From: a virus
Lineage: Duplodnaviria > Caudoviricetes
Strand: one strand, 5' to 3'
Virus record (IMG/VR): IMGVR_UViG_3300033121_002193
Coordinates: 32,001 to 96,000 of that record
Length of the DNA stretch: 64,000 nt
Part shown: in pieces, positions 26,862 to 54,214 of the stretch
Position numbering within the stretch: the first letter of the stretch is position 1
How the letters are laid out: every line of letters starts with the position of its first letter
Program-made: the position numbers and the translations under genes
Notes under the pieces: model-generated
What the model saw: the letters and a program-made list of their open reading frames with translations, nothing else
Databases searched by the model: none
What the model was told of the DNA's origin: nothing

Positions 26862-27116
26862 ATGAATTTTGGCGAAATATTAGAAAGTTTAAAAAAAGGG
26901 AACAGTGCGGCACGAATGGGTTGGAATGGAAAAGGTATTTTTATTGCAATACAACAACCCGATGAAAACAGCAAAATGACCGCTCCTTATATTTATATAG
27001 ATACAACAGGTCTTAAAACAGATAATATTTATTCGCCAAAAAAACTAGTTCCATGGTTTGCTAGCCAAACAGATATATTAGCAGAAGACTGGTTTGTTGT
27101 AAAAGAAGAAGATTGA
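26862..27116 (+). CDS. DUF2829 / Tad2-like anti-defence sponge protein
   Basis: MNFGEILESLKKG..ARMGWNGKG..PWFASQTDILAEDW signature. Confidence 0.85.
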   Translation: MNFGEILESLKKGNSAARMGWNGKGIFIAIQQPDENSKMTAPYIYIDTTGLKTDNIYSPKKLVPWFASQTDILAEDWFVVKEED

Positions 27117-28290: not shown

Positions 28291-28350
28291 TCATTTAATT
28301 TTTGATTTTTCGTAGTACGTTTCAATTTTAGTTAAGGTTGTATTTGTCAT
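28291..28350 (-). pseudogene. Relic of a MORN-family gene start
   Basis: MTNTTLTKIETYYEKSKIK* preceded by AACGCTGAAATAAAAAAAAGAGAA, a variant of the cassette leader. Confidence 0.5.
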
Positions 28351-28487
28351 TTCTCTTTTTTTTATTTCAGCGTTATTTATTTTATTAACTGCAAATTTTT
28401 GCAATCATAATTCACTATTGTTTATTCATTTATGATTGTATCATATCTATAGGATGAAATAAAGATTATTCTTGTGCAGGTAGTGGG

Positions 28488-34678: not shown

Positions 34679-34706
34679 CAGTATTATGTAGCAGCTACAC
34701 CTAAAA

Positions 34707-38083: not shown

Positions 38084-38480
38084 TCGAAATCAATTCGAAA
38101 AATCAAAAAGTATTAAACTCGACGAAAATCTAAACGTCAAACGAGAAGATGAGCATCCGATTTTTTGTTTTAAGTATTTACATAAAGATTATTCATTAGA
38201 ACAATGTGAAAATCACGAGAAAATAGCCTTAATAGAAAAGTTATGCAAATTAAGTCAATTAACTTGGAATCAAATACATAATAGTCATCGTCATGGATTG
38301 GGATGCGAAAAAATTTCCAGAGATGCCATCAGATGTGGCATTCCCCCTCATATAACTAGCGATGTAACATCATTTATTGCTTTTCGGTTTTGCAGTCATG
38401 CGCCGATGGTTGGATATAAAAACCAAAGAATATTTCATATCATATGGCTAGATAGAGATTTTACCCTCTATAAACATTAA
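38064..38480 (+). CDS. Putative toxin partner (RelE-like)
   Basis: Overlaps the antitoxin; HGLGCEKI..AFRF..MVGYK..IFHIIWLDRDFTLYKH. Confidence 0.6.
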   Translation: MKKIRNNRNQFEKSKSIKLDENLNVKREDEHPIFCFKYLHKDYSLEQCENHEKIALIEKLCKLSQLTWNQIHNSHRHGLGCEKISRDAIRCGIPPHITSDVTSFIAFRFCSHAPMVGYKNQRIFHIIWLDRDFTLYKH

Positions 38481-38495: not shown

Positions 38496-38840
38496 CTACA
38501 TAATACCGGTTTTTTCAAATAAACCATCTCGTTTATCATTTTTAAAGGTACATCTTCCTTTTAGCTTACCATTTTCATCAAACGACTCAAATAAACCATC
38601 TCGTTTATCATTTTTAAAGGTACATCTTCCTTTTAGCTTACCATTTTCATCAAACCATTCAAATAGACCATCACATACACCATTTTTGTATGTGCCTTTA
38701 ATATAAGGTTTACCATCTTTATAAAACGCTTCATATAGACTTTGCCTTAAAAAATTTTCATCTATATAATATCGTTCTAGTACAATTGTCTTTGTATCAT
38801 CGTAGTACGTTTCAATTTTAGTTAAGTTAGCGTTTATCAT
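38496..38840 (-). pseudogene. 5' half of a MORN-variant gene truncated by IS1595
   Basis: MINANLTKIETYY..repeats..DGLFEK, then reads into the TIR. Confidence 0.75.
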
Positions 38841-38901
38841 AACTAACATTATACGTAACAAAAGAAAATAATCAAGTAATGCTTTTTTTTAATATCAAAA
38901 C

Positions 38902-39000
38902 ATTTACGAGATTTATCACCAAATAAGCTCTAAACATTTGCACCGTTATTGTGATGAATTTGCGTTTAGGTATAATACCAAAAATTTAAACAATACGTGT
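38902..39000 (+). pseudogene. Fragment of the 17705 IS1595 transposase 3' region
   Basis: Near-identical to about 18458-18555 (TAAACATTTGCACCGTTATTGTGATGAATTTGCGTTTAGGTA). Confidence 0.8.
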
Positions 39001-39104
39001 AACTATTTCTATTTTTAGAAGCAAGAACTAGAAAACCTTTCAATAATAATTGGATTTAATTTTCAAGTAATCATATAAAGCGTTTAATTTCATAACAAAT
39101 TTTT

Positions 39105-39290: not shown

Positions 39291-39794
39291 ATGGCAGATA
39301 ATATAACAAACACCCTTAATCCAGAAACGGAAGCTCAAAAACTTTTAGAAGAATATTGGCCTGAAGGGGAATTCCCTATCAATCCTGCTGATATTGCTAA
39401 TAAGATGGGAATAAGAGTGTTAATTACTACTTTTGATGACTCAAAAATTTCTGGCGCGGTTATGAAAGAAGAAGATGGCCAACCTGAAATTTTAGTAAAC
39501 AAAAAAGATCCTCCAACAATAATAAGATTTAGCATTGCCCATGAATTAGGGCATATTATTCATAACGAACAAAATAAACAATTTGTTTACCTAGATTATA
39601 GAAATCAATTGGCTAGTAATGGTACGGATCCACATGAAATATTTGCCAATCAATTTGCTTCTTGTTTGCTCATGCCTAAAAAAGATGTTGGAGCCGCTTT
39701 TAATTTCCTAAAATTATCTGAGCTTGCACAACATTTTGATGTTTCTGAACAAGCTATAAAATTTAGACTTTTAAATTTAAATATCATGAACTAG
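39291..39794 (+). CDS. ImmA/IrrE-family Zn metallopeptidase
   Basis: FPINPADIA..RFSIAHELGH..EIFANQFASCLLMP..FDVS..AIKFRL. Confidence 0.9.
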   Translation: MADNITNTLNPETEAQKLLEEYWPEGEFPINPADIANKMGIRVLITTFDDSKISGAVMKEEDGQPEILVNKKDPPTIIRFSIAHELGHIIHNEQNKQFVYLDYRNQLASNGTDPHEIFANQFASCLLMPKKDVGAAFNFLKLSELAQHFDVSEQAIKFRLLNLNIMN

Positions 39795-39843
39795 AAGTGT
39801 TCGCTCAGCTTATGATATCAAAAATCACTAACCAAATTCCCTC

Positions 39844-39967
39844 AAACGAACACTTTTCCCCTATAGAAATAATTGCTTTTATCAGTCTTTTTATACAAAT
39901 TTTAACTAAGTACTTGATTTTATTCACTTTGTATAAAAACGAACACTTTTCCCCTATAGAAATAATT
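39844..39967 (+). repeat. 31-bp direct repeat, two copies
   Basis: AAACGAACACTTTTCCCCTATAGAAATAATT at 39844 and 39937. Confidence 0.85.
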
Positions 39968-39969
39968 AA

Positions 39970-40900
39970 AACTAACAAATTCTACAAATAAACTCTCAAT
40001 AATAACCAATTTCACAAAATAAAACTACACAAACAACACAATTCATAAACAACCATGCTGCGCTATTCATACAACTTTTACATTAAGTACATTAAACATT
40101 CACAAACAACATAAATCAACAGCTTACTATCAACAATATACAATTGCTGTAATTAGCATTTCAATGTAATAAATCTATATATGATTTAAAGTGCGTATAA
40201 GGCGATTACAGACAAGTTGTTAATATGCCATAGTGGGATATGTAAAATTAAAATAGAGCGCTAGAAATATATGTTTTGTATATGTGATGATTAGATATAG
40301 GCAGGGGCAGGGGCCCCGCATTTCCCGCAAAAAAACCCCCTGGGTAGGTTACCCCCTATGCTGGCGCGACGTTTAAAGCTTTAATTTTTTGGCGTTACGG
40401 TGGGCAAGCCGGTTGTAACGAACGCTAATAGGGCTAGAATCAACGAACGCAGCGTTACCAATCATACTATACGCATTATCTATACAAACACATATAAAAC
40501 GATTGTGACGCTTTTATATTAGTGACGCTTTTAATTTATCTATTAAGCAACTGGTATAATTGCAACATTATTATTCTTGCAATAGCAATATTCGGTATAC
40601 GTAGCAAACGTAAGAATAAGCGCAACACATTGCACACAATAACATTATCTCATTTGCTTATCTTGTATTACTATGTATAATCGCTTTCATGGCTATATTG
40701 GGCAAATGTGTACGTTTAACAATATTTACTATTGATAGGTTTTATTTCAAATTATTATTATTTATATGTCTTCTATTAAAAATAAGGTGTGCACGAATGT
40801 TTTTTCAATAGGGGATTTTCTTTTTTGGATATTTAAGACAGATGAAGAAAGATGGGAAAATTATGATGAGAAAAATTGATTTTTTGAATAAATTTTTGTA
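39970..40900. other. Long non-coding region with a GC-rich patch (possible origin or genome terminus)
   Basis: No ORF of 60 aa or more; A/C-skewed stretch, then GGCAGGGGCAGGGGCCCCGC..CCCCCTGGG near 40300-40370. Confidence 0.35.
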
Positions 40901-40909
40901 GAATAAATT

Positions 40910-41107
40910 ATGCCTTATTCTTGTAAACGAAAAATATTAATATTGTTATTAGAGCAAATTGAAATTTATTCTGAATATTTGAAAGAACAATTAAAAAATT
41001 CTGAAGAATATGAACAACCAATTGAAATTTGTCAGCAATTGTTTTCTGAAATGAATAATTGTTTTAAAGATTTTAATCTTTTAATTAAATCAGATGAATT
41101 AAAATAA
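40910..41107 (+). CDS. Hypothetical protein
   Basis: 65 aa helical ORF. Confidence 0.4.
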   Translation: MPYSCKRKILILLLEQIEIYSEYLKEQLKNSEEYEQPIEICQQLFSEMNNCFKDFNLLIKSDELK

Positions 41108-41258
41108 AAAAATGATAATATGTATAAGTTAAGGTGATGTTGGATTTTGGGGCGAAAACGAAACATTACATTTAAGGAGATGCAAGATTGAATGGGTTGG
41201 GAAAGAAGGTATATTTCTATCCGGTTTTAAATATATTTCAGAAAAAAAATATAATTAT

Positions 41259-41537
41259 GTGGAATGGTATTTGAAATATTTGTATAGCACTAACTTAACT
41301 CAACAAAATACATTAACACAAGTTGAAACATGCGATGATGAAGAAAAGACAATTGTACTAGAACGTTATTATATAGATGAAAATGGTTTAAAACAAGGTT
41401 TGTTTGAACGGTTTTATAAAGACGGTCAAGTAAAAGAAAAATGCACCTACAAAAATGATCAGTTAATAACCAAAAGTGAAATTTTAATACAAGCACTAAT
41501 TTTATTTTTCTTAAAAATAATTCATTCACTTACTTGA
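41259..41537 (+). CDS. Short MORN-variant protein (start uncertain, possibly degenerate)
   Basis: LTQQNTLTQVET..LERYYIDENGLKQGLFERFYKDG. Confidence 0.6.
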   Translation: MEWYLKYLYSTNLTQQNTLTQVETCDDEEKTIVLERYYIDENGLKQGLFERFYKDGQVKEKCTYKNDQLITKSEILIQALILFFLKIIHSLT

Positions 41538-41631
41538 CACAAAAATTATTCGTGGTATTATTTGAATATAAGTTGATGGATGAATGATTCAAACATTAAC
41601 GAACAACGCTGAAAAAAAAAGAGAGATAAAA
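41516..41631 (+). promoter_or_regulatory. Early promoter-leader cassette, copy 1
   Basis: TTGACA(41534)-17 nt-TATTAT plus leader GTTGATGGATGAATGATTCAAACATTAACGAACAACGCTGAn-GAGAG. Confidence 0.85.
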
Positions 41632-41883
41632 ATGAATACTAATAAAGACAAAATTGAATTAATAAATGAACAAATTATATTAGCAAAACAAATTATGATT
41701 AAAAATAATCTTGAAAAAGATTGGGAAGCTGTTGTGACTTCTTTTAAATTGAATAAAAAATCTAAAGAATTATTTGGGTTTAATTTTTGTAAAATTAATA
41801 CATACCAATTACATGAAACAATAAAAGATTCTTATTTTTATGCCGCAGAGCGAAAAGTTGAAGCTATCGTTAAAAATATATAG
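41632..41883 (+). CDS. Hypothetical early protein
   Basis: ATG directly after the cassette RBS; 83 aa. Confidence 0.65.
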   Translation: MNTNKDKIELINEQIILAKQIMIKNNLEKDWEAVVTSFKLNKKSKELFGFNFCKINTYQLHETIKDSYFYAAERKVEAIVKNI

Positions 41884-41968
41884 TTTAAATAGAGCAAGTG
41901 CTTTATACACACAAGGTCAATTACTCAAATATTAATAACCACCTCAAAACAAAAAGGAAAGATACAAA

Positions 41969-43042
41969 ATGTCAAATAATAACACACACTTAACTCAACA
42001 AAATACATTAACACAAATTGAAACATTTTACGATGAAGCAAAGACAAAAATACAAGAACGATATTATTTAGATGAAAATGGTTTAAAGCAAGGTATGTAC
42101 GAATCATTTTACGAAAACGGGGTACTAAAAGTTAAATGCTTTTATAAAAATGGCAAATTAGATGGCCCATACGAGGAATTCTGCTACAACAGTCAACCAG
42201 CAACTAAATGTACCTACAAAGACGATAAACGAGATGGTTTATACAAGTCGTTTTACGAAAACGGGGTACTAAAAGTTAAATGCTTTTATAAAAATGGCAA
42301 ATTAGATGGTTTATATGAAGAGTTTTACGAAAATGGAAAGCTAAGAGAAAGATGTAATTATAAAAATGATAAACTAAATGGTTTATATGAAGAGTTTTAT
42401 GAAAATGGTCAATTAGAAATAAGATACACTTGCAAAGATGGTATATACGATGGTTTATATGAAGAGTTTTACGAAAATGGCAAGCTAAGAGAAAGATGTA
42501 ATTATAAAAATGGTTTAAGACAAGGTATGTACGAATCATTTTACGAAAATAGTCAGCTAGAAAAGAAAGGCACCTACAAAAATGGCAAATTAGATGGTTT
42601 ATATGAATGGTTTTACGAAAATGGCAAGCTAAAAGAAAGATGCACCTATAAAAATGATAAACTAAATGGTTTATTTGAAGAGTTTTATGAAAATGGTCAG
42701 TTAAGTGAAAGATGTAATTATAAAAATGATAAACTAAATGGTTTATTTGAAGAGTTTTATGAAAATGGCAAGCTAAGAGAAAGATACACCTATAAAAATG
42801 ATAAACTAAATGGTTTATTTGAAGAGTTTTACGAAAATGGCAAGCTAAGAGAAAAATACACCTACAAAGATGATAAAAAAAAGGGTTTATATGAATCATT
42901 TCACATAAATGGGCAATTAAAAGCAAAATTTACCTATAAAGATGGGAAATTAGAAGGGGCGATCGAACAGTTTCTTGAAGATGGTAAAAAAATAGCAGAA
43001 TATGCATACAAAGATGGCGACATACATATAAAAATAGAATAG
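41969..43042 (+). CDS. MORN-variant (YwqK-like) repeat protein, about 14 repeats of 22 aa
   Basis: Tandem GLYEEFYENGKLRERCNYKNDKLN repeats. Confidence 0.9.
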   Translation: MSNNNTHLTQQNTLTQIETFYDEAKTKIQERYYLDENGLKQGMYESFYENGVLKVKCFYKNGKLDGPYEEFCYNSQPATKCTYKDDKRDGLYKSFYENGVLKVKCFYKNGKLDGLYEEFYENGKLRERCNYKNDKLNGLYEEFYENGQLEIRYTCKDGIYDGLYEEFYENGKLRERCNYKNGLRQGMYESFYENSQLEKKGTYKNGKLDGLYEWFYENGKLKERCTYKNDKLNGLFEEFYENGQLSERCNYKNDKLNGLFEEFYENGKLRERYTYKNDKLNGLFEEFYENGKLREKYTYKDDKKKGLYESFHINGQLKAKFTYKDGKLEGAIEQFLEDGKKIAEYAYKDGDIHIKIE

Positions 43043-43083
43043 AAATACCATAATTTTAAACACTAATTTCACTTTTTTTTGAA

Positions 43084-43197
43084 AATACTTCATTCGCTTA
43101 CTTGACACAAAAATCATTTGTGATATTATTTGAATATAAGTTGATGGATGAATGATTCAAACATTAACGAACAACGCTGAAAAAAAGAGAGATTAAA
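43084..43197 (+). promoter_or_regulatory. Early promoter-leader cassette, copy 2
   Basis: TTGACA at 43102, TATTAT, same leader core. Confidence 0.85.
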
Positions 43198-43644
43198 ATG
43201 ACAAATTTAAATACATACACAATCAAAAACACAAACAATCAAGTTATTTTTTCTGGTCAATTCAATTCATTCAAAGAATGTATAGAAACTGCCGTAGAAA
43301 GAAAAATTAATCTAGAAAGTGCTTATTTAGAAAGTGCTTATTTAGAAGGTGCTAATCTAGAAGGTGCCAATTTAGAAGGTGCTAATTTAAGTTATGCTAA
43401 TTTATACAAATGCAATTTAGAAAGTGCTAATTTAAAAGGTGCTAATTTAGAAAATTCTAATTTAGAACATGCTAATTTAGAAAATGCTGATTTATACAAA
43501 TGCAATTTAGAAAGCGCTAATTTACAAGATGCTGTTTTAGAAAATGCTTATTTACAAAATGCTAATTTAGAAGGTGCTGAGTTATACAAATGCAATTTAG
43601 AACATGCTAATTTAGAACATGCTAATTTAATGTTGCCAATTTAA
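43198..43644 (+). CDS. Pentapeptide repeat protein
   Basis: ANLEG/ANLES repeats; last few codons appear frameshifted. Confidence 0.9.
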   Translation: MTNLNTYTIKNTNNQVIFSGQFNSFKECIETAVERKINLESAYLESAYLEGANLEGANLEGANLSYANLYKCNLESANLKGANLENSNLEHANLENADLYKCNLESANLQDAVLENAYLQNANLEGAELYKCNLEHANLEHANLMLPI

Positions 43645-43712
43645 AAGGTGCAAAGCTAGCAAATGTAAAATTTTAATACAAAAAACAACTAACTAGAGAC
43701 AATTAGAATGAG

Positions 43713-43970
43713 ATGATTAAAATGACAAACACGAACAATAACACAAACTTAACCAAAATTGAAAAATGTGTTGATTATGCAAAAACAACTGTTAAATTTA
43801 AATACTATATAGATAAAAATGGCTTAAAACAAGGCTTATATGAATTGTTTTGCGAAGATGGTCAGCTAGACGAACGATGTACTTATAAAAATGACGATTT
43901 ACACGGCATATTAGAATTGTTTGACAATCAAGGAAAATTTGAATTTAGCTGTAACTACTATACCAAATAA
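43713..43970 (+). CDS. Short MORN-variant protein
   Basis: NLTKIEK..YYIDKNGLKQGLYELFCEDG. Confidence 0.75.
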   Translation: MIKMTNTNNNTNLTKIEKCVDYAKTTVKFKYYIDKNGLKQGLYELFCEDGQLDERCTYKNDDLHGILELFDNQGKFEFSCNYYTK

Positions 43971-43981
43971 ACCATAAACAA

Positions 43982-44476
43982 ATGAAAACTACAATATTAA
44001 CATTTCTAATATTAATAAGCGTAATAAATATTTTACATGCACAAACTTCAATTAATGCTTTTATTTTGAATTGTAACGATGGGGACACTTGTAAAATGAA
44101 AGTCAATAATCAAATTATCAAAATTAGATTAGTTGGCATTGATGCCCCAGAGTTAAAACACGGGAAAAAAACAGCACAACCTTATGCGCAAAAAAGCAAA
44201 AACGAATTGAACAACTTAATTAAAGATAAAAATGTATTGGTTAAATTATACAAAAAAGATATATATAAAAGATATTTAGGCGAAATATTTTATAAAAATA
44301 TTAACGTAAATCTAAAAATGCTAGAAATAGGCGCTGCCGAAGTTTACAGGGGTAAAAACGAAAAATCAATTGATTTAAATACATATATCGAAAAAGAAAA
44401 CGTAGCCAAGCAAAATCATATTGGCATATGGAATAACAAAAACTATGAAAGCCCCTTTATTTTTAGAAAAAAATAA
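43982..44476 (+). CDS. Thermonuclease (SNase-like) with signal peptide
   Basis: DGDT, IRLVGIDAPE, DIYKRYLG, GIW. Confidence 0.92.
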   Translation: MKTTILTFLILISVINILHAQTSINAFILNCNDGDTCKMKVNNQIIKIRLVGIDAPELKHGKKTAQPYAQKSKNELNNLIKDKNVLVKLYKKDIYKRYLGEIFYKNINVNLKMLEIGAAEVYRGKNEKSIDLNTYIEKENVAKQNHIGIWNNKNYESPFIFRKK

Positions 44477-44478
44477 AA

Positions 44479-44596
44479 AAATCTTCATTCACTTGCTTGA
44501 CATAAAAATCATTTGTGGTATTATTTAAATATAAGTTGATGGATGAATGATTCAAACATTAACGAACAACGCTGAAAAAAAAGAGAAATATTACAC
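44479..44596 (+). promoter_or_regulatory. Early promoter-leader cassette, copy 3
   Basis: TTGACA at 44497, TATTAT, same leader core. Confidence 0.85.
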
Positions 44597-45076
44597 ATGA
44601 AAACATACGAAATCTTAAACACAAACAATGAAGTTATTTTTTCTGGTCAATTTAATTCATTTAAAGAATGTGTTGCAGCCGCTACCCAAAATGGTATTGA
44701 TTCACCTGGCAAATATTACAAAACTTTTTATGACAATGGCCAATTAAAATCAAAATTTATCTACTTAGATAATACTGTAGATGGTTTATATGAATCTTTT
44801 TATAACAATGGTCAGTTAAGTTTAAAATGCACATACAAAGATGGTAGACTAGACGGATTATATGAAAGTTTTTGGGAAAATGGTAACATTGAAATAAAAT
44901 GTACATACAAAAACGGCAAAAAAAATGGTTTTTATGAAAGATTTCACGAAAATGGACAATTAGCAATAAGATGCACATTTGTAGATAACAGAAAAGAAGG
45001 GATGTGTGAAGCGTTTCATGAAGATGGAAAAGTAAGTATAAAAGGATCATACAAAAATAACATATATATATTTTAA
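44597..45076 (+). CDS. Chimeric protein: pentapeptide-type N-terminal cap + MORN-variant repeats
   Basis: MKTYEILNTNNEVIFSGQFNSFKECV followed by FYDNG/FYNNG/FWENG repeats. Confidence 0.85.
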   Translation: MKTYEILNTNNEVIFSGQFNSFKECVAAATQNGIDSPGKYYKTFYDNGQLKSKFIYLDNTVDGLYESFYNNGQLSLKCTYKDGRLDGLYESFWENGNIEIKCTYKNGKKNGFYERFHENGQLAIRCTFVDNRKEGMCEAFHEDGKVSIKGSYKNNIYIF

Positions 45077-45130
45077 TATAAAAATCAAACCAACATAAAC
45101 TAGAGATAATTTAAAACGGGAGATACTAAT

Positions 45131-45352
45131 ATGACAAATTTAACAGTAACACAAAGATTAACTTTAGAAATAACTTCACTTGTAAAAACATTTGATAATT
45201 ACACAGTAGAAACCGAACAAGATTTAATTAAAAAAGAAGTTTGTAGAAGGATCGCTGTTTCATCTGCTAAAATTGCACACTATGCAAACAACGGCAAAAT
45301 TGCACATGCAGAGATTGAAGAATTAAAAAATATAGCGGATGTTTTTTCTTAA
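45131..45352 (+). CDS. Hypothetical protein
   Basis: 73 aa, GGGAG RBS. Confidence 0.6.
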   Translation: MTNLTVTQRLTLEITSLVKTFDNYTVETEQDLIKKEVCRRIAVSSAKIAHYANNGKIAHAEIEELKNIADVFS

Positions 45353-45353
45353 A

Positions 45354-45469
45354 AATAATTCATTCACTTACTTGACATAAAAATCATTTGTGGTATTATT
45401 TAAATATAAGTTGATGGATGAATGATTCAAACATTAACGAACAACGCTGAAAAAAAGAGAGAGATAAAA
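45354..45469 (+). promoter_or_regulatory. Early promoter-leader cassette, copy 4
   Basis: TTGACA at 45372, TATTAT, same leader core. Confidence 0.85.
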
Positions 45470-45910
45470 ATGAAAACATACGAAATCTTAAACACAAACA
45501 ATCAAGTTATTTTTTCTGGTCAATTCAATTCATTCAAAGAATGTGTTGAAACTGCTGTAGAAAGAAAAATTTCTTTAAAAAATGCTAATTTAGAAGGTGC
45601 TAATTTAAGATATGCTAATTTACAAGATACCAATTTAGAAAATGCTAATTTAAGATATGCTAATTTAAGATATGCTAATTTAGAACGTGCTAATTTACAA
45701 GATGCCAATTTAGAAGGTGCTAATTTAGCACGTGCCAATTTAGAAAATGCTAATTTAGAACGTGCTAATTTAAGATATGCTAATTTAGAACGTGCTAATT
45801 TAGAACGTGCTAATTTAGAACGTGCTAATTTAAGATATGCTAATTTAGAACGTGCTAATTTAGAACGTGCTAATTTAGAACGTGCTAATTTATTAAATAT
45901 AAATTTTTAA
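45470..45910 (+). CDS. Pentapeptide repeat protein
   Basis: ANLER/ANLRY repeats; ATG at 45470 after the RBS. Confidence 0.9.
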   Translation: MKTYEILNTNNQVIFSGQFNSFKECVETAVERKISLKNANLEGANLRYANLQDTNLENANLRYANLRYANLERANLQDANLEGANLARANLENANLERANLRYANLERANLERANLERANLRYANLERANLERANLERANLLNINF

Positions 45911-45939
45911 TAAAAAAACTAATTTCACTTTTTTTTGAA

Positions 45940-46054
45940 AATAATTCATTCACTTACTTGACACAAAAATCATTTGTGATATTATTTAAATATAAGTTGA
46001 TGGATGAATGATTCAAACATTAACGAACAACGCTGAAAAAAAGAAAGATAAAAA
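45940..46054 (+). promoter_or_regulatory. Early promoter-leader cassette, copy 5
   Basis: TTGACA at 45958, TATTAT, same leader core. Confidence 0.85.
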
Positions 46055-46439
46055 ATGACAAATACAAACAATAGTACAAACTTAAAATTAATTGAAACAT
46101 TTTACGACAAAGCAAAGACAATTATAAAAGAACGATATTACATAGATGAAAATGGCTTTAGACAAGGTATGTACGAAGAGTTTTACGAAAATGGAAAACT
46201 TAAAACTAAATGCACATTTAAAGATGATAAAATGGAATCTCTATCTGATCATTTTTATAAAAATGATCAGATAGAGATTCATGCTCTATTCGAATTATTT
46301 AAAGAGTATAGCAGATATTGTAAAAAGATGCACCTATAAAGATGATAAATTAGATGGTTTGTATGAATCGTTTTGCGAAGATGGTCGGTCTTATATGAAA
46401 TTCACTTATGAAAATGGTCAGTTAATAACAAAAATTTAA
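46055..46439 (+). pseudogene. MORN-variant gene with a frameshift near 46325
   Basis: First frame ends at 46339; RCTYKDDKLDGLYESFCEDG..KI* continues in another frame. Confidence 0.7.
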
Positions 46440-46564
46440 ATATGGTATTTTAAAATAAATGTGGCACATGTGACTTTTTTTTTAACGTAAGAATTTAACC
46501 AAGTTTAAATCGTAATAGCTTGTATTATTAGCAACGGCCAGTCAGCAAAGAGGGTTTAAATGTC

Positions 46565-46735
46565 ATGTACCTATTAGACGAACAATACACACAGACGCCG
46601 TTTTATGGTGTCTTGCGAATGACTACTTATTTAAGGCGGCTTGGGTACGCGATTAACGAAAAGCACGTACAGCGCTTGCTTAGAGAAATGGGATTGTTTT
46701 CTATTTACACAAAGACTAATTTAAGTAAGCAAAAT
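46565..46735 (+). pseudogene. IS3-family transposase OrfB N-terminal fragment
   Basis: LDEQYTQTPFYGVLRMTTYLRRLGYAINEKHVQRLLREMGL..NLSK. Confidence 0.75.
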
Positions 46736-47221
46736 CAAATTAAAATGTCTTTTTCAAGACACAAACATTCTTATTATTGCACATATCCGCAACTATACCT
46801 GCTACATTTGTCTAGCATTAAATGTACATGGCCAGATATTGTAAAAACACTATGCTTCAAAAATCATTTTAAAAGCCATTTTACGCATTTTGTTTTGCAC
46901 ATCTATAGCTTGGCATTGCTTATGATGTTTTCATCTATTAAACTGGCAATAAAGCGCTTTATTTTATGTATATTTGCTGTTGTTTGTGTAAGATGTGATA
47001 AAATTTTATACAATATATATAAAAATACCATAAAACAAAAGATGACGCACAGAGAGATACCACAACAACAAAGTAAATAAAAAAATATAATAGTGTTTTT
47101 TACACAATATTACAATGGTGTTTTGTGTGTACAATTATCTTTTGCAAGAAACGAATATGTGGAACAAAAAAAGTCTTAATCTAAATTATTGATATTACTT
47201 TCTTATAAAAGATAATAAACT

Positions 47222-47437
47222 ATGAATATAAAAAAATATAATTCTATTTTTAAAAAAAACAAAAATACAAAGATAAATAAACTTTCTAAAAATAAAAAAC
47301 ACAAACCTAAAAATCAAGCGGCAGTTACTTTGGGAAAATTAGGCGGAAAAGTTGGCGGTCCAGCAAGAGATAAGTCGTTGCCAAAAGCGAGAAAAATAGA
47401 AATTGCAAAACTTGGCGCCAAGCATAGATGGAAATAG
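47222..47437 (+). CDS. Small basic KGG-motif protein, homolog of 32987-33211
   Basis: AAVTLGKLGGKVGGPARDKSLPKARKIEIAKLGAKHRW; CTTAATCT at 47175 upstream. Confidence 0.7.
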   Translation: MNIKKYNSIFKKNKNTKINKLSKNKKHKPKNQAAVTLGKLGGKVGGPARDKSLPKARKIEIAKLGAKHRWK

Positions 47438-47465
47438 ATAAAATATTTTGTAAAACAAAAAAAAT

Positions 47466-47481
47466 GCTTGAGCGCTCAAGC
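47466..47481. promoter_or_regulatory. Perfect 16-bp palindrome
   Basis: GCTTGAGCGCTCAAGC; resembles the 29403 palindrome. Confidence 0.55.
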
Positions 47482-47684
47482 TAAGTGTATATTTTTTTGA
47501 ATTCATTTTAATCATAAGCACAAACGTATTATTTATATGACTTGTATAAAGCATGTTCTTTGTCAAATATTTTTAACACGATAGAAAAAAAATAAAAATC
47601 AAGAGGCATCAAAAAAAAACAAAACATTAATAAATCAACTTGACTTATTTGTTTCATTCGATATGATTTTTTTGATATTAATAT

Positions 47685-47757
47685 TCCGACTTAGCTCAGC
47701 TGGTAGAGCAGGTGACTGTTAATCATCGGGTCGCAGGTTCGATTCCTGCAGTCGGAG
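47685..47757 (+). tRNA. tRNA-Asn (GTT), CCA not encoded
   Basis: Acceptor stem TCCGACT/AGTCGGA; D-arm AGCTCAGCTGGTAGAGC; anticodon loop CTGTTAA; T-loop GTTCGATTC. Confidence 0.95.
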
Positions 47758-47797
47758 TTTTTTGTTGTAATTGAGATATTTATAATGGAGAAAAAAA

Positions 47798-48184
47798 ATG
47801 GAACAAATTGATGATACCGAAATAAAATCAACAATAAAATTAAAAAAAGAAACACTTGAAATAGAATTAAAAGATTTATGTAAAAAAATAGATGCAATAC
47901 AAAAAGAATTAAACAAATATAATTCTCTTTTAAAAATATTAAATCAACAAGAACCAATTCAAGATTCAAGACAAGCGAAGCAAGTGAGAATAAAAATATT
48001 ATTAGATAATTTAAAAACAAACGAAACCATTACACGAAAAAAAATAGAGTCAATTTTATCAAACAATCAGTTATCTGTAAATTCATATGTATTAACCAAT
48101 TACATTCATCATTTAAAAAAGCACAATTTTTTTACGCAAACCAGCAGAGGACTATTTAAATACACAGGAAAAACAATTGAATAA
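47798..48184 (+). CDS. Hypothetical coiled-coil / possible winged-helix protein
   Basis: 128 aa, GGAG RBS; ends TSRGLFKY. Confidence 0.6.
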   Translation: MEQIDDTEIKSTIKLKKETLEIELKDLCKKIDAIQKELNKYNSLLKILNQQEPIQDSRQAKQVRIKILLDNLKTNETITRKKIESILSNNQLSVNSYVLTNYIHHLKKHNFFTQTSRGLFKYTGKTIE

Positions 48185-49123: not shown

Positions 49124-49732
49124 ATGAATTTAAAAAATATAATTACATTATTAATATTACTAACAAGCATTAATTGTAATGGTATTTCAAAAATAAAATT
49201 AAAATACTATGATTCAAATTCTGAAAATGAACAGATGTTATTATTAGATAGCGCAAAGAAGTTTAATGCTCTTATCGGTTGTGAGGCAGTAACTTTAGAA
49301 CATGTAGAAAAAACAAAAGAAGCGATTATTGGCAACGGAATTTCTGAAATTCAAATATTAGAATCAAATGTCATGAATATTTTGGCTGAAAAATCAGCGG
49401 CAGCATATGGAATAGACAAAGCAGCTGCAGTTACTTTTTTTGAAGATGATGATGTGTTTATCTCTAGACATAAATTAACGGATTGTTATTATGAAGACTT
49501 TGGACAGTGTGTTTATCTTAAAATAGACATTGTGTTTTTTCATGAAATTGGGCATGTATTTGGATTAATGCATAGTGAAAATGAAAGCGATATTATGAAT
49601 AAAATACCGGCAAACAAACATTCTGCTAATGATTTTATTGATTTTATTAATCAGTTACAAACAAAAACAAATATTTGTGATAAAAAAATAAATACTAATA
49701 CGTTTTTAACAATACAGAGAGATAAACAATGA
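49124..49732 (+). CDS. Matrixin-like zinc metalloprotease, probable lipoprotein
   Basis: HEIGHVFGLMH..DIM Met-turn; signal peptide ending INC; preceded by the 3' part of the cassette leader (49097). Confidence 0.8.
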   Translation: MNLKNIITLLILLTSINCNGISKIKLKYYDSNSENEQMLLLDSAKKFNALIGCEAVTLEHVEKTKEAIIGNGISEIQILESNVMNILAEKSAAAYGIDKAAAVTFFEDDDVFISRHKLTDCYYEDFGQCVYLKIDIVFFHEIGHVFGLMHSENESDIMNKIPANKHSANDFIDFINQLQTKTNICDKKINTNTFLTIQRDKQ

Positions 49733-50169
49733 AAATAACAAATGATGAAAAAACTTTAATAACTAAAGAAGAACAAACATGGCCACCTGAATATTGTGAA
49801 GTATATCTTGTTGATGAAAACAATTATGGAACTATTTTTTTTCGTGAAGAAAAAACTATAATTATAAAAGAACACGATAAAGAACAAAAAATACCAATTG
49901 ATAATATCATCGGTCAATATTGGGTTCCGACTTGTGAAAAAAGAATCTCTGGGATATGGTATCTTACAAATGTTGATATTATCTTACCTAGAAAAAACCT
50001 TTGGTTATATAGAAAACATTATAATGAAAAATATCCAACAAAAAAACAGCTGGCTGTTTATGATGAATGTTTAGCTGCATGGCTTATTGGAAATTCAGAA
50101 TATAATCACGGTGAACTTCAAGATGACTTTGATTATTATCAAATAGTACAAGAACCAAATGATCCTTAA
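49729..50169 (+). CDS. Hypothetical protein
   Basis: 146 aa, ATGA overlap with the previous gene. Confidence 0.6.
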   Translation: MKITNDEKTLITKEEQTWPPEYCEVYLVDENNYGTIFFREEKTIIIKEHDKEQKIPIDNIIGQYWVPTCEKRISGIWYLTNVDIILPRKNLWLYRKHYNEKYPTKKQLAVYDECLAAWLIGNSEYNHGELQDDFDYYQIVQEPNDP

Positions 50170-50270
50170 TTAACAGCTGAATTAATTAAATCAAAGGAAA
50201 ATTATGCAATTAATATTAACAGAAACATTTTGGGATTTACATAGATTTAAACTAAAAGAACGCTATTACA

Positions 50271-50771
50271 TTGCTCGAGTTACAAAAGCTCATGTATTTT
50301 ATGCAAGAGACGGGAGAGCCTTTGAAGCTCCACTTTAAAAAAGCGCTATATGGACCATATGCTGAAAACCTAAGGCATGTGCTCAACTATATTGAAGGGC
50401 ATTTTGTCAGTGGTTATCTTGATGGCGGCGATGATCCGACCAAGCCTTTAGAACTCAAGCCCAACGCTGTTCAAGAAGCGGAGCTTTACCTCAAAAATCA
50501 CCCTGCAACCAATGAGCGGTTGGAACGGGTCACCCAGCTTATTCAAGGATTTGAGACGCCCTACGGAATGGAGCTATTGTCTACAGTTTATTGGATAGCC
50601 AAAGATAAAAATGTGTTGGATGCAGAACAGGTCGTTAATGAATTTCATAATTTGAACGAGCGTAAACGCATGTTTAGTAGCGAGCATATTATGGTTACCC
50701 TAAAAACACTTCGTATTAAGCATTGGATAAAATCGTTATCAATTAAATTCGGAAGGAGAAGAAATTCATAA
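50271..50771 (+). CDS. DarG C-terminal domain, shorter copy (may be a pseudogene)
   Basis: LLELQKLMYFMQETGEPLKL..YGPYAENLRHVL..GFETPYGMELLSTVYW; no macrodomain; no clear RBS. Confidence 0.7.
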   Translation: MLELQKLMYFMQETGEPLKLHFKKALYGPYAENLRHVLNYIEGHFVSGYLDGGDDPTKPLELKPNAVQEAELYLKNHPATNERLERVTQLIQGFETPYGMELLSTVYWIAKDKNVLDAEQVVNEFHNLNERKRMFSSEHIMVTLKTLRIKHWIKSLSIKFGRRRNS

Positions 50772-50773
50772 AA

Positions 50774-50974
50774 ATGAAAATTTTACTAGACATAAAACCT
50801 GCCAAAGACAATTACTGTGGAGATGGGAACGGTAATTTTTGTCCTTTTATGTTAAAAAGGAAATTTGGCACAATCCCATTCTGTTCCGTTTTCGATAAGG
50901 ATTTGCCAATAACAAATAGAAAAATAACCAGGCTAGAAGAATGCGTTTGTTCCACAGCGAGTGGATTGTTATAA
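50774..50974 (+). CDS. Small Cys-rich hypothetical protein
   Basis: 66 aa, AAGGAG upstream. Confidence 0.55.
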   Translation: MKILLDIKPAKDNYCGDGNGNFCPFMLKRKFGTIPFCSVFDKDLPITNRKITRLEECVCSTASGLL

Positions 50975-51103
50975 AGAAAGTTAATTTTATGCTATTAACA
51001 GAAATAAGAGACTACATTGCTTCAAATGCCGAGAATATTTTGTTCCACCCGTCAGATATGGTTGGGAATGAGATAAAATTTTAATAATAAGAAGGGACTA
51101 TAT

Positions 51104-51568
51104 ATGTATGTTGTTGAAGATTTAAATAAACTTGCGAGTTTGCTTGGTCGATTCAGGATTGACAGACTTACAGTATATCTAAATAAATATGATTTGTATG
51201 AAGCCCAGAAAAACATAGGCGATAAAATTGTATACCCTATTGTTGTATGGGGAAAAAATAATATTTTTACGACTGGAACTCTACACATCAAAGGAGTAGA
51301 AGAACAAGACAATGAATCAATCTCCGACGGAGTTAGCTTTGATCATTTCATCCCTCTACCAAGTCTATGCTTAAATCCATCCAATGAGCACCCCGATAGC
51401 GTAGAGTATAGGACAAAAACGACTATAAATGGAGTCCAATATTGTGCATCAACAATTTTGCCAACAGACTTCATCAAAAATGAGGGAGACATAAACGCCA
51501 TCCGCCAAGTGCATAAAGAAAAAATATTAAAATCAGTTTTAGAAAAATCAAAAGATGGCTATACATAG
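51104..51568 (+). CDS. Hypothetical protein
   Basis: 154 aa, GAAGGG RBS. Confidence 0.6.
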   Translation: MYVVEDLNKLASLLGRFRIDRLTVYLNKYDLYEAQKNIGDKIVYPIVVWGKNNIFTTGTLHIKGVEEQDNESISDGVSFDHFIPLPSLCLNPSNEHPDSVEYRTKTTINGVQYCASTILPTDFIKNEGDINAIRQVHKEKILKSVLEKSKDGYT

Positions 51569-51708
51569 TATGCAATTTTATCGGTATGGTTCTTGTTATG
51601 GTGTGAGTTTGGACATTATAAATTTATTAAGGCAATAGGAAGCAAGTGGGCGCCAATGCCAAAATTTCCAGCGAATGAACTAGATTTAAAATGAGCTAAG
51701 TTTTTTAG

Positions 51709-51930
51709 ATGGACGGAGATCCCATGATGAAAAATAAAGAACACCAAAGCTTATGGACGGTGATAAAAAAATCAGGCCTATTTTCTCAGAACCCAGTTAG
51801 AATGACATATGAAATATCATATGAACAATTAATGATATTATGTGAAATACTGAATGGGCCTGGGAATAGAAAAACACTGCGAAGAAAAATAATAAAGATG
51901 TTTAGGCCAATAAAATGCGAAAAACAATAG
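51709..51930 (+). CDS. Hypothetical protein
   Basis: 73 aa; GGAG before an internal ATG. Confidence 0.45.
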   Translation: MDGDPMMKNKEHQSLWTVIKKSGLFSQNPVRMTYEISYEQLMILCEILNGPGNRKTLRRKIIKMFRPIKCEKQ

Positions 51931-52037
51931 GTGTGAAATGTGTACGCCTGTACCATTAGCGCCGATTGATTAGGCAACATTATGATAGGGGATTAGATGA
52001 GAATGTTGAAAATTTTAACAACAAGAAGAGATTCCAT

Positions 52038-52658
52038 ATGTGTGTTGCTGAAGATTTAAATAAAGAGAATTTTGCCGAACGGCAGATCCCGGAGATGACC
52101 ATCGGCCACGCAGCACTAGTAATGCTAATGCGTCGTTATTTAAGCGCCTTGATGGATCCAACTATTACATTGCTCGAGTTACAAAAGCTCATGTATTTTA
52201 TGCAAGAGACGGGAGAGCCTTTGAAGCTCCACTTTAAAAAAGCGCTATATGGACCATATGCTGAAAACCTAAGGCATGTGCTCAACTATATTGAAGGGCA
52301 TTTTGTCAGTGGTTATCTTGATGGCGGCGATGATCCGACCAAGCCTTTAGAACTCAAGCCCAACGCTGTTCAAGAAGCGGAGCTTTACCTCAAAAATCAC
52401 CCTGCAACCAATGAGCGGTTGGAACGGGTCACCCAGCTTATTCAAGGATTTGAGACGCCCTACGGAATGGAGCTATTGTCTACAGTTTATTGGATAGCCA
52501 AAGATAAAAATGTGTTGGATGCAGAACAGGTCGTTAATGAATTTCATAATTTGAACGAGCGTAAACGTATGTTTAGTAGCGAGCATATTATGGTTACCCT
52601 AAAAACACTTCGTATTAAGCATTGGATAAAACCAGTATTATGTAGCAGCTACACCTAA
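52038..52658 (+). CDS. Stand-alone DarG C-terminal (DarT-binding) domain fused to a phage-type start
   Basis: MCVAEDLNK + PEMTIGHAALVMLMRRYLSALMDPTITLLELQKLMYF..; start region paralogous to 51104. Confidence 0.75.
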   Translation: MCVAEDLNKENFAERQIPEMTIGHAALVMLMRRYLSALMDPTITLLELQKLMYFMQETGEPLKLHFKKALYGPYAENLRHVLNYIEGHFVSGYLDGGDDPTKPLELKPNAVQEAELYLKNHPATNERLERVTQLIQGFETPYGMELLSTVYWIAKDKNVLDAEQVVNEFHNLNERKRMFSSEHIMVTLKTLRIKHWIKPVLCSSYT

Positions 52659-53100
52659 ATTTTACTTAGATTAATCTGATTAATTCCAATAATCATTTTC
52701 TTTATTTTTGCGTTAGTTTGATCGTCTTCTCCAAAAAAAGAAAATCCATTTTTTTGATACCAAGCTACGGAATCTATTTTGATATGAACAACAATTCCAA
52801 CACATCCGGATATAGTAGATTGTTCGTGAGCTTTATTGAAACTTAATTGAAGAAGTTTTTACCTACACCTTTTTTTTGATGATTGGTAATTACCGCAAAT
52901 CTAGCAATTAAAAATATTTAAAACTGACCCGCTATCCACTTTTCTTGTCATTGGAGGTACGCCCTGAATTCCGTGATTTATAGCATTTTATATTGTCTTT
53001 GCCATTAACGATTTTAAGACATTTTGCAAAGCTTTAAGATAGGTATCATTTAAAGTAAAGATTAGGTTATAATTTAAGGTGCAGTTGTTATACAATACCG
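52633..53100. mobile_element. Non-autonomous IS1595-type remnant (MITE-like) containing a degenerate IS1 end
   Basis: Left end matches the 34679 TIR; right end AGGTGCAGTTGTTATACAATACCG; TTTAAAACTGACCCGCTATC near 52917. Confidence 0.55.
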
Positions 53101-53240
53101 AAAAATCTTGTAGACATTTATGTATCATCTAACGAAAAGTGTGTTTAAACTTGTTTTTAATTATGTTGTTACAATAAAATACATGGCCCATATGTAAAAA
53201 AAACTACCACAAAAAATCAACTCATATAATGTTTCTTTTT

Positions 53241-53651
53241 TCATTTGTTTTTTCCTTTTTGTATTAATAATTTATTATCAGCTATAAAATCACAAGCTGA
53301 TAAAATTAAATATTGTCTACATATTTCATCTATTATGTTTTCTTTTTTATTTTTTATTTGCAAATAACACAAAAAATAACTATTGCAAGATAATAACATA
53401 AATTTTGTTTCCCATGTACACATTTTAATCCATGGTGTAAAAAAATTATTTTGTATTAAGTAATTATTAATATCTATTATAGTTTTGTCTGTTAAATTTT
53501 TACACTTAACATGATGCACAATAAAAGAAACAGCCATATCTAAAAACTGATCATGCATTTTTTGTAATTTTTTATCAGTTCGTAAAGACTTAATAAATAA
53601 TAAGCTATTTTCGAAATTATTCTTTTTCATTTTTATTTTTCCTATTGACAA
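53241..53651 (-). CDS. Hypothetical protein
   Basis: 136 aa ORF. Confidence 0.5.
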   Translation of the reverse strand: MSIGKIKMKKNNFENSLLFIKSLRTDKKLQKMHDQFLDMAVSFIVHHVKCKNLTDKTIIDINNYLIQNNFFTPWIKMCTWETKFMLLSCNSYFLCYLQIKNKKENIIDEICRQYLILSACDFIADNKLLIQKGKNK

Positions 53652-53690
53652 ATATTATTTTTTTAATAATTGTGATTTCTTTACTGGGTT

Positions 53691-53730
53691 AAAAGGGGCT
53701 CTTCACCCTCTCAAAGTGAGCCCCTTTTTT
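53691..53730. terminator. GC-rich hairpin with A/T tails
   Basis: AAAAGGGGCTC..GAGCCCCTTTTTT. Confidence 0.55.
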
Positions 53731-53830
53731 TATTTCTATCCGATAAAAAATATTTGTCAAAAATAATGCATAAAAAAACTTATAATATTTCTATTGTAAA
53801 ATCTATCTTTTTTATGTTAGAAACACAAAA

Positions 53831-54019
53831 ATGAAAAAAGAACTCTACGGAATTTTGTTGTTTTTTTTATTTTCTATTGTTATAACGATAGAACCATTTA
53901 ATACAATTTTTAAAAAACTATTAATTCTTTTGATTTATATTTTGTTGCGCTTAACAAAAAGAATGCTTCTTTTTTTAGAAAAAGCACTAAAATATTTAAC
54001 GAAAAATGATAATCAATAA
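53831..54019 (+). CDS. Small membrane protein
   Basis: 62 aa, hydrophobic. Confidence 0.4.
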   Translation: MKKELYGILLFFLFSIVITIEPFNTIFKKLLILLIYILLRLTKRMLLFLEKALKYLTKNDNQ

Positions 54020-54214
54020 TATTAAAATCATTTGACTTTTATTTTAATTATGATAAATAGATTTTAGATGAGTTAAAAAAACGATGAAAAAGTTTGAGAA
54101 AGGAGAATTGACGATGAAATACAAAAAGCTACATTTTTGATAAATTATTTTTTTCGCTGAAACACATAAAGTAAAAAAACAATAAACAAGATAAAATTTA
54201 ATGGAGATATTATT

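Follow-up and report, generated by a model that had tools for sequence, protein, structure and literature searches.

A repeat that occurs in five direct copies in the genome of a 135-kb Mx1-like myovirus (IMG/VR) appears, with a probability of about 0.6, to be a portable high-expression promoter joined to a complete 5′UTR, a module that would have been reused for five co-directional accessory operons. The array itself is genuine and varies on a habit already known from phages, and no evidence shows it to be a dedicated gene-shuffling machine. It lies mid-contig, at 73.5–78.4 kb of the genome, and is described here in positions of the window, the whole 64,000-nt stretch of DNA analysed. The five repeats of ~115 bp reported in an earlier note on this DNA were found by the repeat search and aligned; they form a five-member family of 163 nt with identities of 72–100% and spacings of 1568, 1395, 875 and 586, and the unit length ranges from 115 to 190 nt depending on the pair compared (~120 nt in round terms). 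The whole genome contains only five full copies and one diverged copy. Each unit consists, in order, of an A/T-rich upstream tract, the promoter, a 29-nt hairpin and an unpaired A-rich, purine-rich ribosome site:

41505–41631, + strand: unit 1, with an A/T block upstream of the −35, −35 at 41534–41539, extended −10 at 41553–41561, hairpin at 41572–41600 and A-rich ribosome-site part at 41605–41631
43073–43197, + strand: unit 2, with −35 at 43102, −10 at 43124–43129 and hairpin at 43140–43168
44477–44596, + strand: unit 3 (repeat copy starting at 44468), with −35 at 44497, −10 at 44519–44524 and hairpin at 44535–44563; its homology with the other units begins only at about −20
45343–45469, + strand: unit 4, with −35 at 45372, −10 at 45394–45399 and hairpin at 45410–45438
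45929–46054, + strand: unit 5, with −35 at 45958, −10 at 45980–45985 and hairpin at 45996–46024

The sequence agrees with the earlier description of the repeats as consensus host-type promoters followed by an invariant foldable leader that ends in a ribosome site. All five TTGACA positions given there were correct, while the spacer between TTGACA and TATTAT measures 16 nt instead of the 17 nt claimed. The promoter, composed of TTGACA, this spacer and the extended −10 TGnTATTAT, was present in all five units, each of which matched the consensus at 11/12 with a TG preceding the −10, and these were the top-scoring sites within the 16-kb region scanned. Genome-wide, 16 sites scoring ≥11/12 were observed against 11.35 expected, so that the array alone stands out; outside it, consensus-like sites do not exceed chance, and host-type promoters are therefore no general trait of the genome. 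Strict matches to the extended −10 numbered six in 135 kb, with five of them in the array. Three partial copies proposed earlier (at 26759, near 28351 on the minus strand and at 49097) all proved real, and two of them head genes:

26755–26821, + strand: diverged copy comprising the promoter and the leader's first third, 85–88% identity, without the hairpin
26862–27116, + strand: Tad2-like anti-Thoeris gene headed by the diverged copy
28291–28374, − strand: remnant with the 3′ leader part and a MORN gene head that breaks off after 19 codons
49097–49129, + strand: ribosome-site copy, 33 nt exact, behind a different promoter-like site
49124–49732, + strand: matrixin-like peptidase gene headed by the 33-nt ribosome-site copy

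In the copy at 26755 and in the single copy of the relative G002, the −35 is conserved along with the greater part of the −10 hexamer and the bases transcribed first, while spacer and hairpin differ; the TG before the −10 was retained in the G002 copy and lost in the 26755 copy. This pattern of conservation fits a promoter. The host's own RNA polymerase, unmodified and carrying the primary sigma factor, would bind the A/T tract, the TTGACA, its 16-nt spacer and the extended −10. The cassettes would therefore be strongly transcribed with no need of phage factors, most likely as soon as infection begins. Two observations count against this: the nearest IS1595 transposases (56% identity) come from Bacteroidota, a group whose polymerase does not recognise the consensus, and a clear Shine-Dalgarno core was found in only about one third of the ORFs.

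The leader is the most conserved part of the unit. Its core of 40 nt was exact in five of five units (chance expectation 0 in 100 shuffles), and only 1 of 48 leader sites was variable compared with 18 of 67 in the promoter part (Fisher p 2e-4), whereas the adjoining homologous coding heads carried 10–22 differences per 96 nt. As the earlier note had proposed, the leader can fold: the 29-nt hairpin formed in all five units at −9.4 kcal/mol with z about −4 (−3.4 to −4.4), and the ribosome site and start codon stayed unpaired in the predicted fold. The transcript is predicted to begin ~4 nt ahead of the hairpin, which would most likely protect the 5′ end against 5′-end-dependent decay, and the unstructured A-rich tract with its purine-rich Shine-Dalgarno-like site would give efficient initiation at the first gene. 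About four unpaired 5′ nucleotides are borderline for such protection. RppH requires at least 2–3 unpaired 5′ nucleotides. The 5′ stem-loop and polypurine mRNA stabilisers referenced in the review PMC3997798 include ompA and papA of E. coli, the aprE leader of B. subtilis and the phage SP82 polypurine tract in B. subtilis. Set against these stabilisers, the start in the array is only predicted and its conservation is stricter than a stabilising role requires. A plain stabilising hairpin should tolerate loop, linker and compensatory changes, yet all of 47 leader positions are fixed, loop and linker included, which points to sequence-specific recognition beyond what the stabilising model accounts for.

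Such recognition is central to a second reading, compatible with the promoter reading, in which the leader is a cis-regulatory site through which a trans-acting factor switches all cassettes together, either as a DNA operator (the palindrome) or as an RNA operator at which a translational repressor or a nuclease acts. Similar cases are the Aca repressors at anti-CRISPR promoters and T4 RegA and RegB on early mRNAs. We regard this reading as possible, at a good deal less than even odds. It would account for a leader fixed even in loop and linker next to a promoter spacer and coding sequence that vary. At the DNA level the leader carries an imperfect 29-bp palindrome spanning about +8 to +36, with a perfect 11-bp palindrome at its centre, and the 11-bp palindrome was found only in the five units and at one further site, of chance level, whose central base differs. 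The 3′ leader block moreover stands at two more gene starts, and the 33-nt ribosome-site part is kept in strain G001 although its upstream sequence has diverged there. Both the palindrome and the hairpin, however, are lost from the two diverged homologues (the 26755 and G002 copies), and no candidate regulator was found: the 73-aa protein of cassette 3 has no helix-turn-helix, and no Xre-type gene adjoins the IrrE-like gene. The leader has no antisense partner in the genome, and Rfam 15 gave no match at gathering score over the window and none at E≤1 over 39700–47800. The leader may still be a regulatory RNA element. It is somewhat more doubtful that it serves as a regulon address tag, its exact sequence being read by one phage or host factor and also acting as a seam for new cargo; if so, counter-defence and solenoid 'binder' genes would be timed or shut off as one set.

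The genes behind the units bear on how the promoter and 5′UTR module may have spread. One to three genes follow each of the five repeats, as claimed, and the "binding proteins" attributed to the cassettes correspond to repeat (binder-type) proteins present in them:

41259–41482, + strand: MORN_2 remnant just upstream of unit 1, without a normal start
41632–43042, + strand: cassette 1, with an 83-aa unknown protein (41632–41883) and a 357-aa MORN_2 protein (41969–43042; domain search E 2.9e-62)
43198–44476, + strand: cassette 2, with a pentapeptide gene (43198–43644), a short MORN_2 gene (43713–43970) and an SNase-type nuclease (43982–44476)
44597–45352, + strand: cassette 3, with a chimeric MORN_2 gene (44597–45076) and a 73-aa protein (45131–45352)
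45470–45910, + strand: cassette 4, a pentapeptide-repeat protein of 146 aa
46055–46439, + strand: cassette 5, a MORN_2 gene in two frames (46055–46339 and 46281–46439)

Overall, the cargo comprises MORN_2 and pentapeptide solenoid proteins, one SNase-type nuclease and two small unknowns, and to judge from its genes and surroundings it probably fits accessory or counter-defence roles. The searches made with the 83-aa protein gave no match. The 73-aa protein is predicted to be a three-helix bundle; it had no PDB match, and its atlas matches of 0.80–0.82 were below the meaningful level. Panacea and IrrE-like genes also lie near the array.

The unit precedes three unrelated gene starts, namely the 83-aa gene (unit 1), head H1 (units 2, 3 and 4) and head H2 (unit 5), and where the genes differ, homology between units ends at the start codon. 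Pairs of units were 86–96% identical over 116–208 nt, excluding the alignment of units 2 and 4, which runs through their paralogous genes with 82% identity over 574 nt. If a single gene and the region upstream of it had recently been duplicated in tandem, leaving young copies of no special function, this would explain the paralogous MORN_2 and pentapeptide genes, and the array is bracketed by like ends, since the tail of the MORN_2 remnant (41439–41482) resembles that of cassette 5 (46398–46441). This explanation is already hard to hold and very improbable, because the leader is identical while adjoining paralogous coding sequence is 10–23% diverged or unrelated, and because homology stops at the start codon before non-homologous genes.

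Exchange among the copies has left its own traces. The chimeric gene of cassette 3 joins a 30-aa head common to the pentapeptide genes to a MORN_2 body, a four-gamete violation was found at +21/+30, and the units pair differently by promoter variant (3 with 4, 2 with 5) and by gene body (2 with 4, 3 with 5). Together these results indicate mosaicism that needs recombination. Under the preferred promoter and 5′UTR reading, duplication and recombination, whether homologous or illegitimate, would have placed copies of the module ahead of unrelated gene starts, selection on the leader together with exchange among the copies would keep it nearly invariant, and deletion, duplication and swapping of cassettes, including any real-time events, would be an expected by-product with no dedicated mechanism.

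The earlier note went further and proposed a modular shuffling system. In its strict form, modelled on the promoter-early stem-loop (PeSL) elements of T4-type phages, the repeats would be mainly recombination sites at which cassettes are excised as mini-circles and reordered or exchanged between genomes. PeSLs, in which a terminator stem-loop stands beside a promoter (PMC2839356), are found in the phages RB49/phi1, T4/PST and KVP40/nt-1, and their role is defined by indels bounded by the motifs and by mini-circles (PMC2839356, PMC4122927). They resemble the array in their repeated sigma-70-consensus promoters with an A/T-rich upstream tract, in lying beside small accessory genes where the genome of a large lytic phage is plastic, and in being sufficiently long for homologous recombination. 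Beyond this precedent, the shuffling reading draws on the near-identical direct repeats of 115–160 nt that flank accessory cassettes, on the mosaicism and promoter-versus-gene discordance, and on the presence, at a distance of 13 kb and on the opposite strand, of leader fragments with MORN heads. Next to the array, strain G001 differs from this genome by a block rearrangement in which window positions 50273–52056, flanked in this genome by 470-nt repeats that are 99.8% identical, are absent from G001. The case for cassette shuffling at the repeats is an indirect one only.

The anatomy disagrees with the claimed PeSL likeness, however. A PeSL stem-loop terminates upstream transcription, whereas the hairpin of the array lies inside the 5′UTR of a unit that includes the ribosome site. 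The 79 nt upstream of each promoter folded no better than shuffles (z −0.3 to −1.1; +0.6 for unit 2), no plus-strand terminator-like site was found within 41500–46500, and the only strong hairpin of the unit is downstream of the −10 and has no U-run. The phage belongs to an Mx1-like instead of a T4-type lineage: its major capsid protein is 44.6% identical to that of Myxococcus phage Mx1, 74% to that of G002 and ~26% to those of SPO1-like phages, with no T4-like phages among the capsid matches listed. A dedicated system is unmarked by any recombinase or end signatures, some breakpoints fall inside coding sequence and outside the unit (the cassette 3 chimera), and conservation peaks in the transcribed leader, which recombination alone would not need. 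No relative covering the array was found, G001 (95% identity) ending at window position 48884 and G002 near 47100, and no indel or swap at a unit was seen. We therefore consider strict PeSL-type shuffling unlikely.

A likeness to the SPO1 host-takeover module, also claimed earlier, stood as an analogy in layout and failed at the level of genes. That module holds small early genes in short operons (Stewart et al. 1998, cited in PMC6873191), and, as in the array, each short operon has the kind of promoter and ribosome sites seen in highly expressed genes; in the citing account the SPO1 promoters are not presented as a single invariant 120-nt unit that shares a leader. No homologues of SPO1 genes 37–60 were found, PHROGs and Pfam yielding only MORN_2, pentapeptide and SNase in the array, and there was no evidence of a terminal repeat at the array, which is mid-contig. 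The 13-bp SAS of Cluster K mycobacteriophages, for which a role in translation initiation has been suggested (Pope et al. 2011, PMC3203893), is likewise a conserved asymmetric ribosome-site block a few bases before the starts of non-structural genes of different families, and inverted repeats precede half of the cases (extended SAS). Its sequence differs, though, and the 13-bp consensus was not found 3–7 bp before the start codon, so the resemblance is functional only; the SAS is not tied to a promoter, which the array unit includes, and the inverted repeats of the extended SAS do not support an RNA hairpin, whereas the array stem folds well. Putative mobile promoters, a statistical class surveyed in bacterial chromosomes with no mechanism (Matus-Garcia, Nijveen & van Passel 2012; PMC3575422), also comprise near-identical upstream regions before non-homologous genes in one genome. 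Judged by sequence, the array is a case of promoter reuse of this kind, a similar upstream region standing ahead of non-homologous genes, with its copies clustered in one phage array rather than in bacterial chromosomes; whether selection or recent duplication is responsible was left open for mobile promoters (PMC3575422), and the same question applies to the array.

Arrays of reused promoters are one way in which large lytic phages wire new accessory and anti-defence genes into immediate expression, and they also make seams for gene gain and loss. What is new compared with PeSLs is the uncultured and unrelated lineage, only distantly related to Mx1, and a conserved part that is a complete 5′UTR instead of a terminator. 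Because the leader is exactly invariant, it offers a small and testable candidate element for stabilisation or regulation, and the unit may also find use as a compact part for expression. Likely early counter-defence cargo is marked out by the promoter family as well, and the Tad2-like gene under the diverged copy gives a starting point for the uncharacterised MORN_2, pentapeptide and small proteins. Among the cassette genes, the pentapeptide repeats of cassette 2 carry on in another frame past about 43625, the frame break of cassette 5 surrounds an insert (46235–46280) with a perfect 20-bp palindrome, and the SNase-type nuclease of cassette 2 has a hydrophobic N-terminus and is predicted to be secreted.

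A repeat search of the window detected a family of five direct repeats, 163 nt in length and 72–100% identical to the reference copy, and the alignment of the copies is nearly gap-free between a point some 30 nt upstream of the −35 hexamer and the ribosome site. All five copies share an identical 40-nt stretch of leader, which had no matches in 100 dinucleotide-preserving shuffles. The repeated feature is real and well delimited; a search of the complete 135-kb record gave the five array copies and one diverged copy at window 26755–26821, and no others. The TTGACA coordinates of the earlier note were all correct, the three partial copies it had claimed are real, and its anatomy of the unit was right apart from the spacer, which it gave as 17 nt; TTGACA and TATTAT lie 16 nt apart, with a TG ahead of TATTAT that makes this an extended −10.

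Units found by the repeat search with the genes they head, and partial copies (window coordinates)
41505, plus strand: unit 1, heading an 83-aa unknown protein and a 357-aa MORN_2 protein
43073, plus strand: unit 2, heading a pentapeptide-repeat protein, a short MORN_2 gene and an SNase-type nuclease
44468, plus strand: unit 3, heading a chimera of pentapeptide-type head and MORN_2 body, and a 73-aa protein
45343, plus strand: unit 4, heading a pentapeptide-repeat protein
45929, plus strand: unit 5, heading a broken MORN_2 gene
26755, plus strand: promoter and first third of the leader, 85–88% identical
28374–28291, minus strand: 3′ part of the leader, with the head of a MORN gene that breaks off after 19 codons
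49097: exact 33-nt match to the part of unit 1 with the ribosome site; the promoter-like site ahead of it is a different one

Parts of the unit, 5′ to 3′
5′ part: A/T-rich block, with an extra 15–25 nt further upstream common to units 1, 2 and 5
Promoter: TTGACA, 16-nt spacer, TGnTATTAT, predicted start about 7 nt downstream
Leader, after the start: about 4 unpaired nt, 29-nt hairpin, 12-nt linker
Hairpin: 7-bp outer stem with one G-U pair, 2x2 internal loop, 4-bp inner stem, 3-nt loop
3′ end: A run, GA-rich Shine-Dalgarno-like site, start codon 5–9 nt beyond

The five array sites have the best promoter-consensus scores in the 16 kb scanned and make up five of the six strict extended −10 matches genome-wide, the five copies counting as one independent observation of the consensus. 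Consensus sites scoring at least 11/12 numbered 16 genome-wide against 11.35 expected, so there is no general enrichment of such sites. Stronger evidence for a promoter comes from two diverged homologues, the 26755 copy and the single unit of G002 (a relative with 74% capsid identity). In both, the −35, the first transcribed bases and most of the −10 hexamer are conserved, and differences are seen in the hairpin region and the spacer's 5′ half; the TG before the −10 is kept in the G002 unit and lost in the 26755 copy. Such conservation is the pattern of a working promoter, whose activity and timing are inferred. The G002 unit (locus L016, 18133–18228, minus strand; G002 38133–38228) has no hairpin and shares the −35, the extended −10, the first transcribed bases and the 3′ leader block with the array units. 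It heads an ORF of about 46 aa in a 13-kb region that has almost no DNA similarity to its shorter counterpart at window 50165–54375.

Counted from the start of TTGACA, only one of 48 sites is variable between +38 and +85, compared with 18 of 67 between −29 and +37 (Fisher p 2e-4, five copies), five of the latter lying between 0 and +37. The homologous gene heads that directly follow the units differ at 10–22 of 96 positions, and over 574 nt the identity between the paralogous genes of units 2 and 4 is 82%. This shows the leader to be the most constrained piece of the unit. Homology between units starts somewhere from −13 to −56, according to which two are compared, and stops at the start codon wherever the genes are unrelated; three unrelated gene starts carry the unit upstream. 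Promoter variants pair units 3 with 4 and 2 with 5, whereas by gene body units 2 and 4 (pentapeptide) belong together, as do 3 and 5 (MORN). At +21/+30, all four allele combinations are present among the five units, and the gene of unit 3 is chimeric, with its breakpoint within the coding sequence. The gradient, the discordance, the four combinations and the chimera together need repeated exchange between copies. The 3′ leader block (AACGCTGAAA, A run, GA-rich site) also stands before three further gene starts, two of them in this genome and the third in G002, and it is kept in G001, a strain of 95% identity, while the sequence just upstream has diverged.

The leader can fold as the earlier note had suggested, with −9.4 kcal/mol in all five copies and z-scores, relative to shuffled sequence, of −3.4 to −4.4; the predicted folds leave the ribosome site unpaired. 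No U-run follows the hairpin on its 3′ side, hence it is no terminator. We favor, at a probability of roughly 0.6, a reused promoter/5′UTR expression module that is spread and kept uniform by recombination and selection. Host polymerase would initiate transcription with no phage factor needed, the message would be protected and loaded through the 5′ hairpin and purine-rich ribosome site, and recombination with selection would propagate the module and hold it uniform. Such protecting and loading roles have precedents in 5′ stem-loops and polypurine leaders (cited in PMC3997798). Nevertheless, the loop and linker are fully invariant, beyond what a stabilizer needs, so a factor reading the leader sequence-specifically, on DNA or RNA, is a live rival; we regard it as the less likely reading, and the searches made gave no candidate factor.

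Several other roles for the unit were tried and rejected. Ahead of each promoter, the 79-nt sequences are no more stably folded than shuffles (z +0.6 to −1.1), and a consensus scan found no plus-strand terminator inside the array, which dismisses a terminator upstream of each promoter. Units had no Rfam match even at E ≤ 1, so a riboswitch or other curated RNA was discarded, and an antisense partner of the leader was searched for and rejected. A small leader peptide was also set aside, as the short ATG frames in the leader lack a ribosome site and are not in a constant register with the gene from unit to unit.

The unit array is a variant of a known phage promoter-module arrangement. The PeSL (promoter-early stem-loop) of T4-type phages, to which the earlier note likened it, is defined by a terminator stem-loop, indels at motifs and mini-circles (PMC2839356, PMC4122927); the likeness holds for the promoter, the A/T tract and the genomic role, but the terminator stem-loop is a PeSL feature that the upstream folds and terminator scan do not find here. 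The likeness to the SPO1 host-takeover module (PMC6873191) goes no further than an analogy in how the genes are organized. For the conserved ribosome-site block, the closest parallel is in Cluster K mycobacteriophages, where the SAS/ESAS combines such a block with inverted repeats upstream and has no known function (PMC3203893). The unit also qualifies, operationally, as a reused or putative mobile promoter (PMC3575422).

The label of a shuffling system is not demonstrated for the array. Its support is indirect: direct repeats this long will recombine, and near the array a block rearrangement separates this genome from G001, which lacks window 50273–52056 and carries a 2.6-kb insertion with a 781-aa methyltransferase-type gene at an IS-end motif. 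However, no contig besides its own covers the array among all the collections and relatives searched, and a strict shuffling system appears improbable to us. Exact leader patterns had no matches in the viral, metagenome and genome collections, and a gapped pattern from the two blocks conserved in G002 had 44, all chance coding matches except G002 itself. Protein-guided searches (83-aa gene, nuclease, two gene-head alignments, 267-aa neighbor) gave no array-covering relative; their five MORN matches are unrelated viruses, and neither capsid gene nor unit was found in the two largest of these contigs. GenBank phages matched only via pentapeptide repeats, and G001, G002 and a further relative, G003, all found via the capsid gene, end short of the array or are without it. 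Repeats of G003 were rejected as control units, being tail-fiber coding repeats and duplicated gene pieces.

On either side of the block missing in G001 lie 470-nt repeats, 99.8% identical (window 50263–50732 and 52162–52631), which we take to be the 3′ part of a DarG-C-terminal-like gene. At the corresponding G001 locus (L019 2617–5730) there is one copy, together with a whole MORN-like gene that is truncated in this genome. A 27-nt motif with eight occurrences on both strands was rejected as part of the unit, as it is taken to be the end of IS1595-type elements; the IS1595 transposases closest in sequence are from Bacteroidota (56% identity).

Positions of the 27-nt motif
Window 38483 and 39130: pair surrounding a MORN_2 gene (38496–38861, minus strand) and a 101-nt transposase-gene remnant (38902–39002, 90% identical to 18458–18558)
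Window 34681–34704, minus strand
Window 52635–52658, minus strand
Window 53075–53098, plus strand
Whole record, outside the window: 4448, minus strand, and 6799, plus strand

The window spans bases 32001–96000 of its source record, which is 84% complete (IMG/VR). In the major capsid protein, the record shares 44.6% identity with Myxococcus phage Mx1 and about 26% with SPO1-like phages. A Shine-Dalgarno core precedes 32% of ORFs versus 5% in the background; neither this nor the transposase similarity yielded a host assignment. A Panacea-domain protein and an IrrE-like peptidase lie near the array, and a Tad2-like gene (PF11195, E 6e-22) is headed by the diverged promoter copy at 26755; these neighbors place the array in an accessory, probably counter-defense, region. 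The 73-aa protein is predicted to be a three-helix bundle (pLDDT 86); the model matched nothing in the PDB, and on this comparison a helix-turn-helix regulator was rejected; the 83-aa protein gave a poor model.

The pentapeptide gene of cassette 2 ends at 43644 while its repeats run on in another frame to about 43678 (window 43600–43680), the cause being either a frameshift or a sequencing error. An upstream block of about 14 nt, distinct from the unit, is common to the second genes of cassettes 2 and 3 (window 43690–43712 and 45098–45130), so internal genes too reuse a shared initiation region. Window 39800–40900 is about 1.1 kb without credible ORF or Rfam match and may represent an origin or an RNA of unknown type. 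It has a G+C-rich patch at 40290–40470 and, near 39846 and 39939, two exact copies of a direct repeat of about 29 nt, spaced by some 93 nt. The MORN_2 gene of cassette 5 is disrupted by an insert of about 110 nt (about 46234–46346), with a short duplicated MORN segment at its flanks and a perfect 20-bp palindrome (window 46235–46280) that occurs once in this genome and in none of G001–G003. An IS3-type transposase fragment (HTH_21 domain only, window 46565–47080) adjoins the right array end and is followed by a tRNA-Asn (GTT) gene at window 47684–47758.
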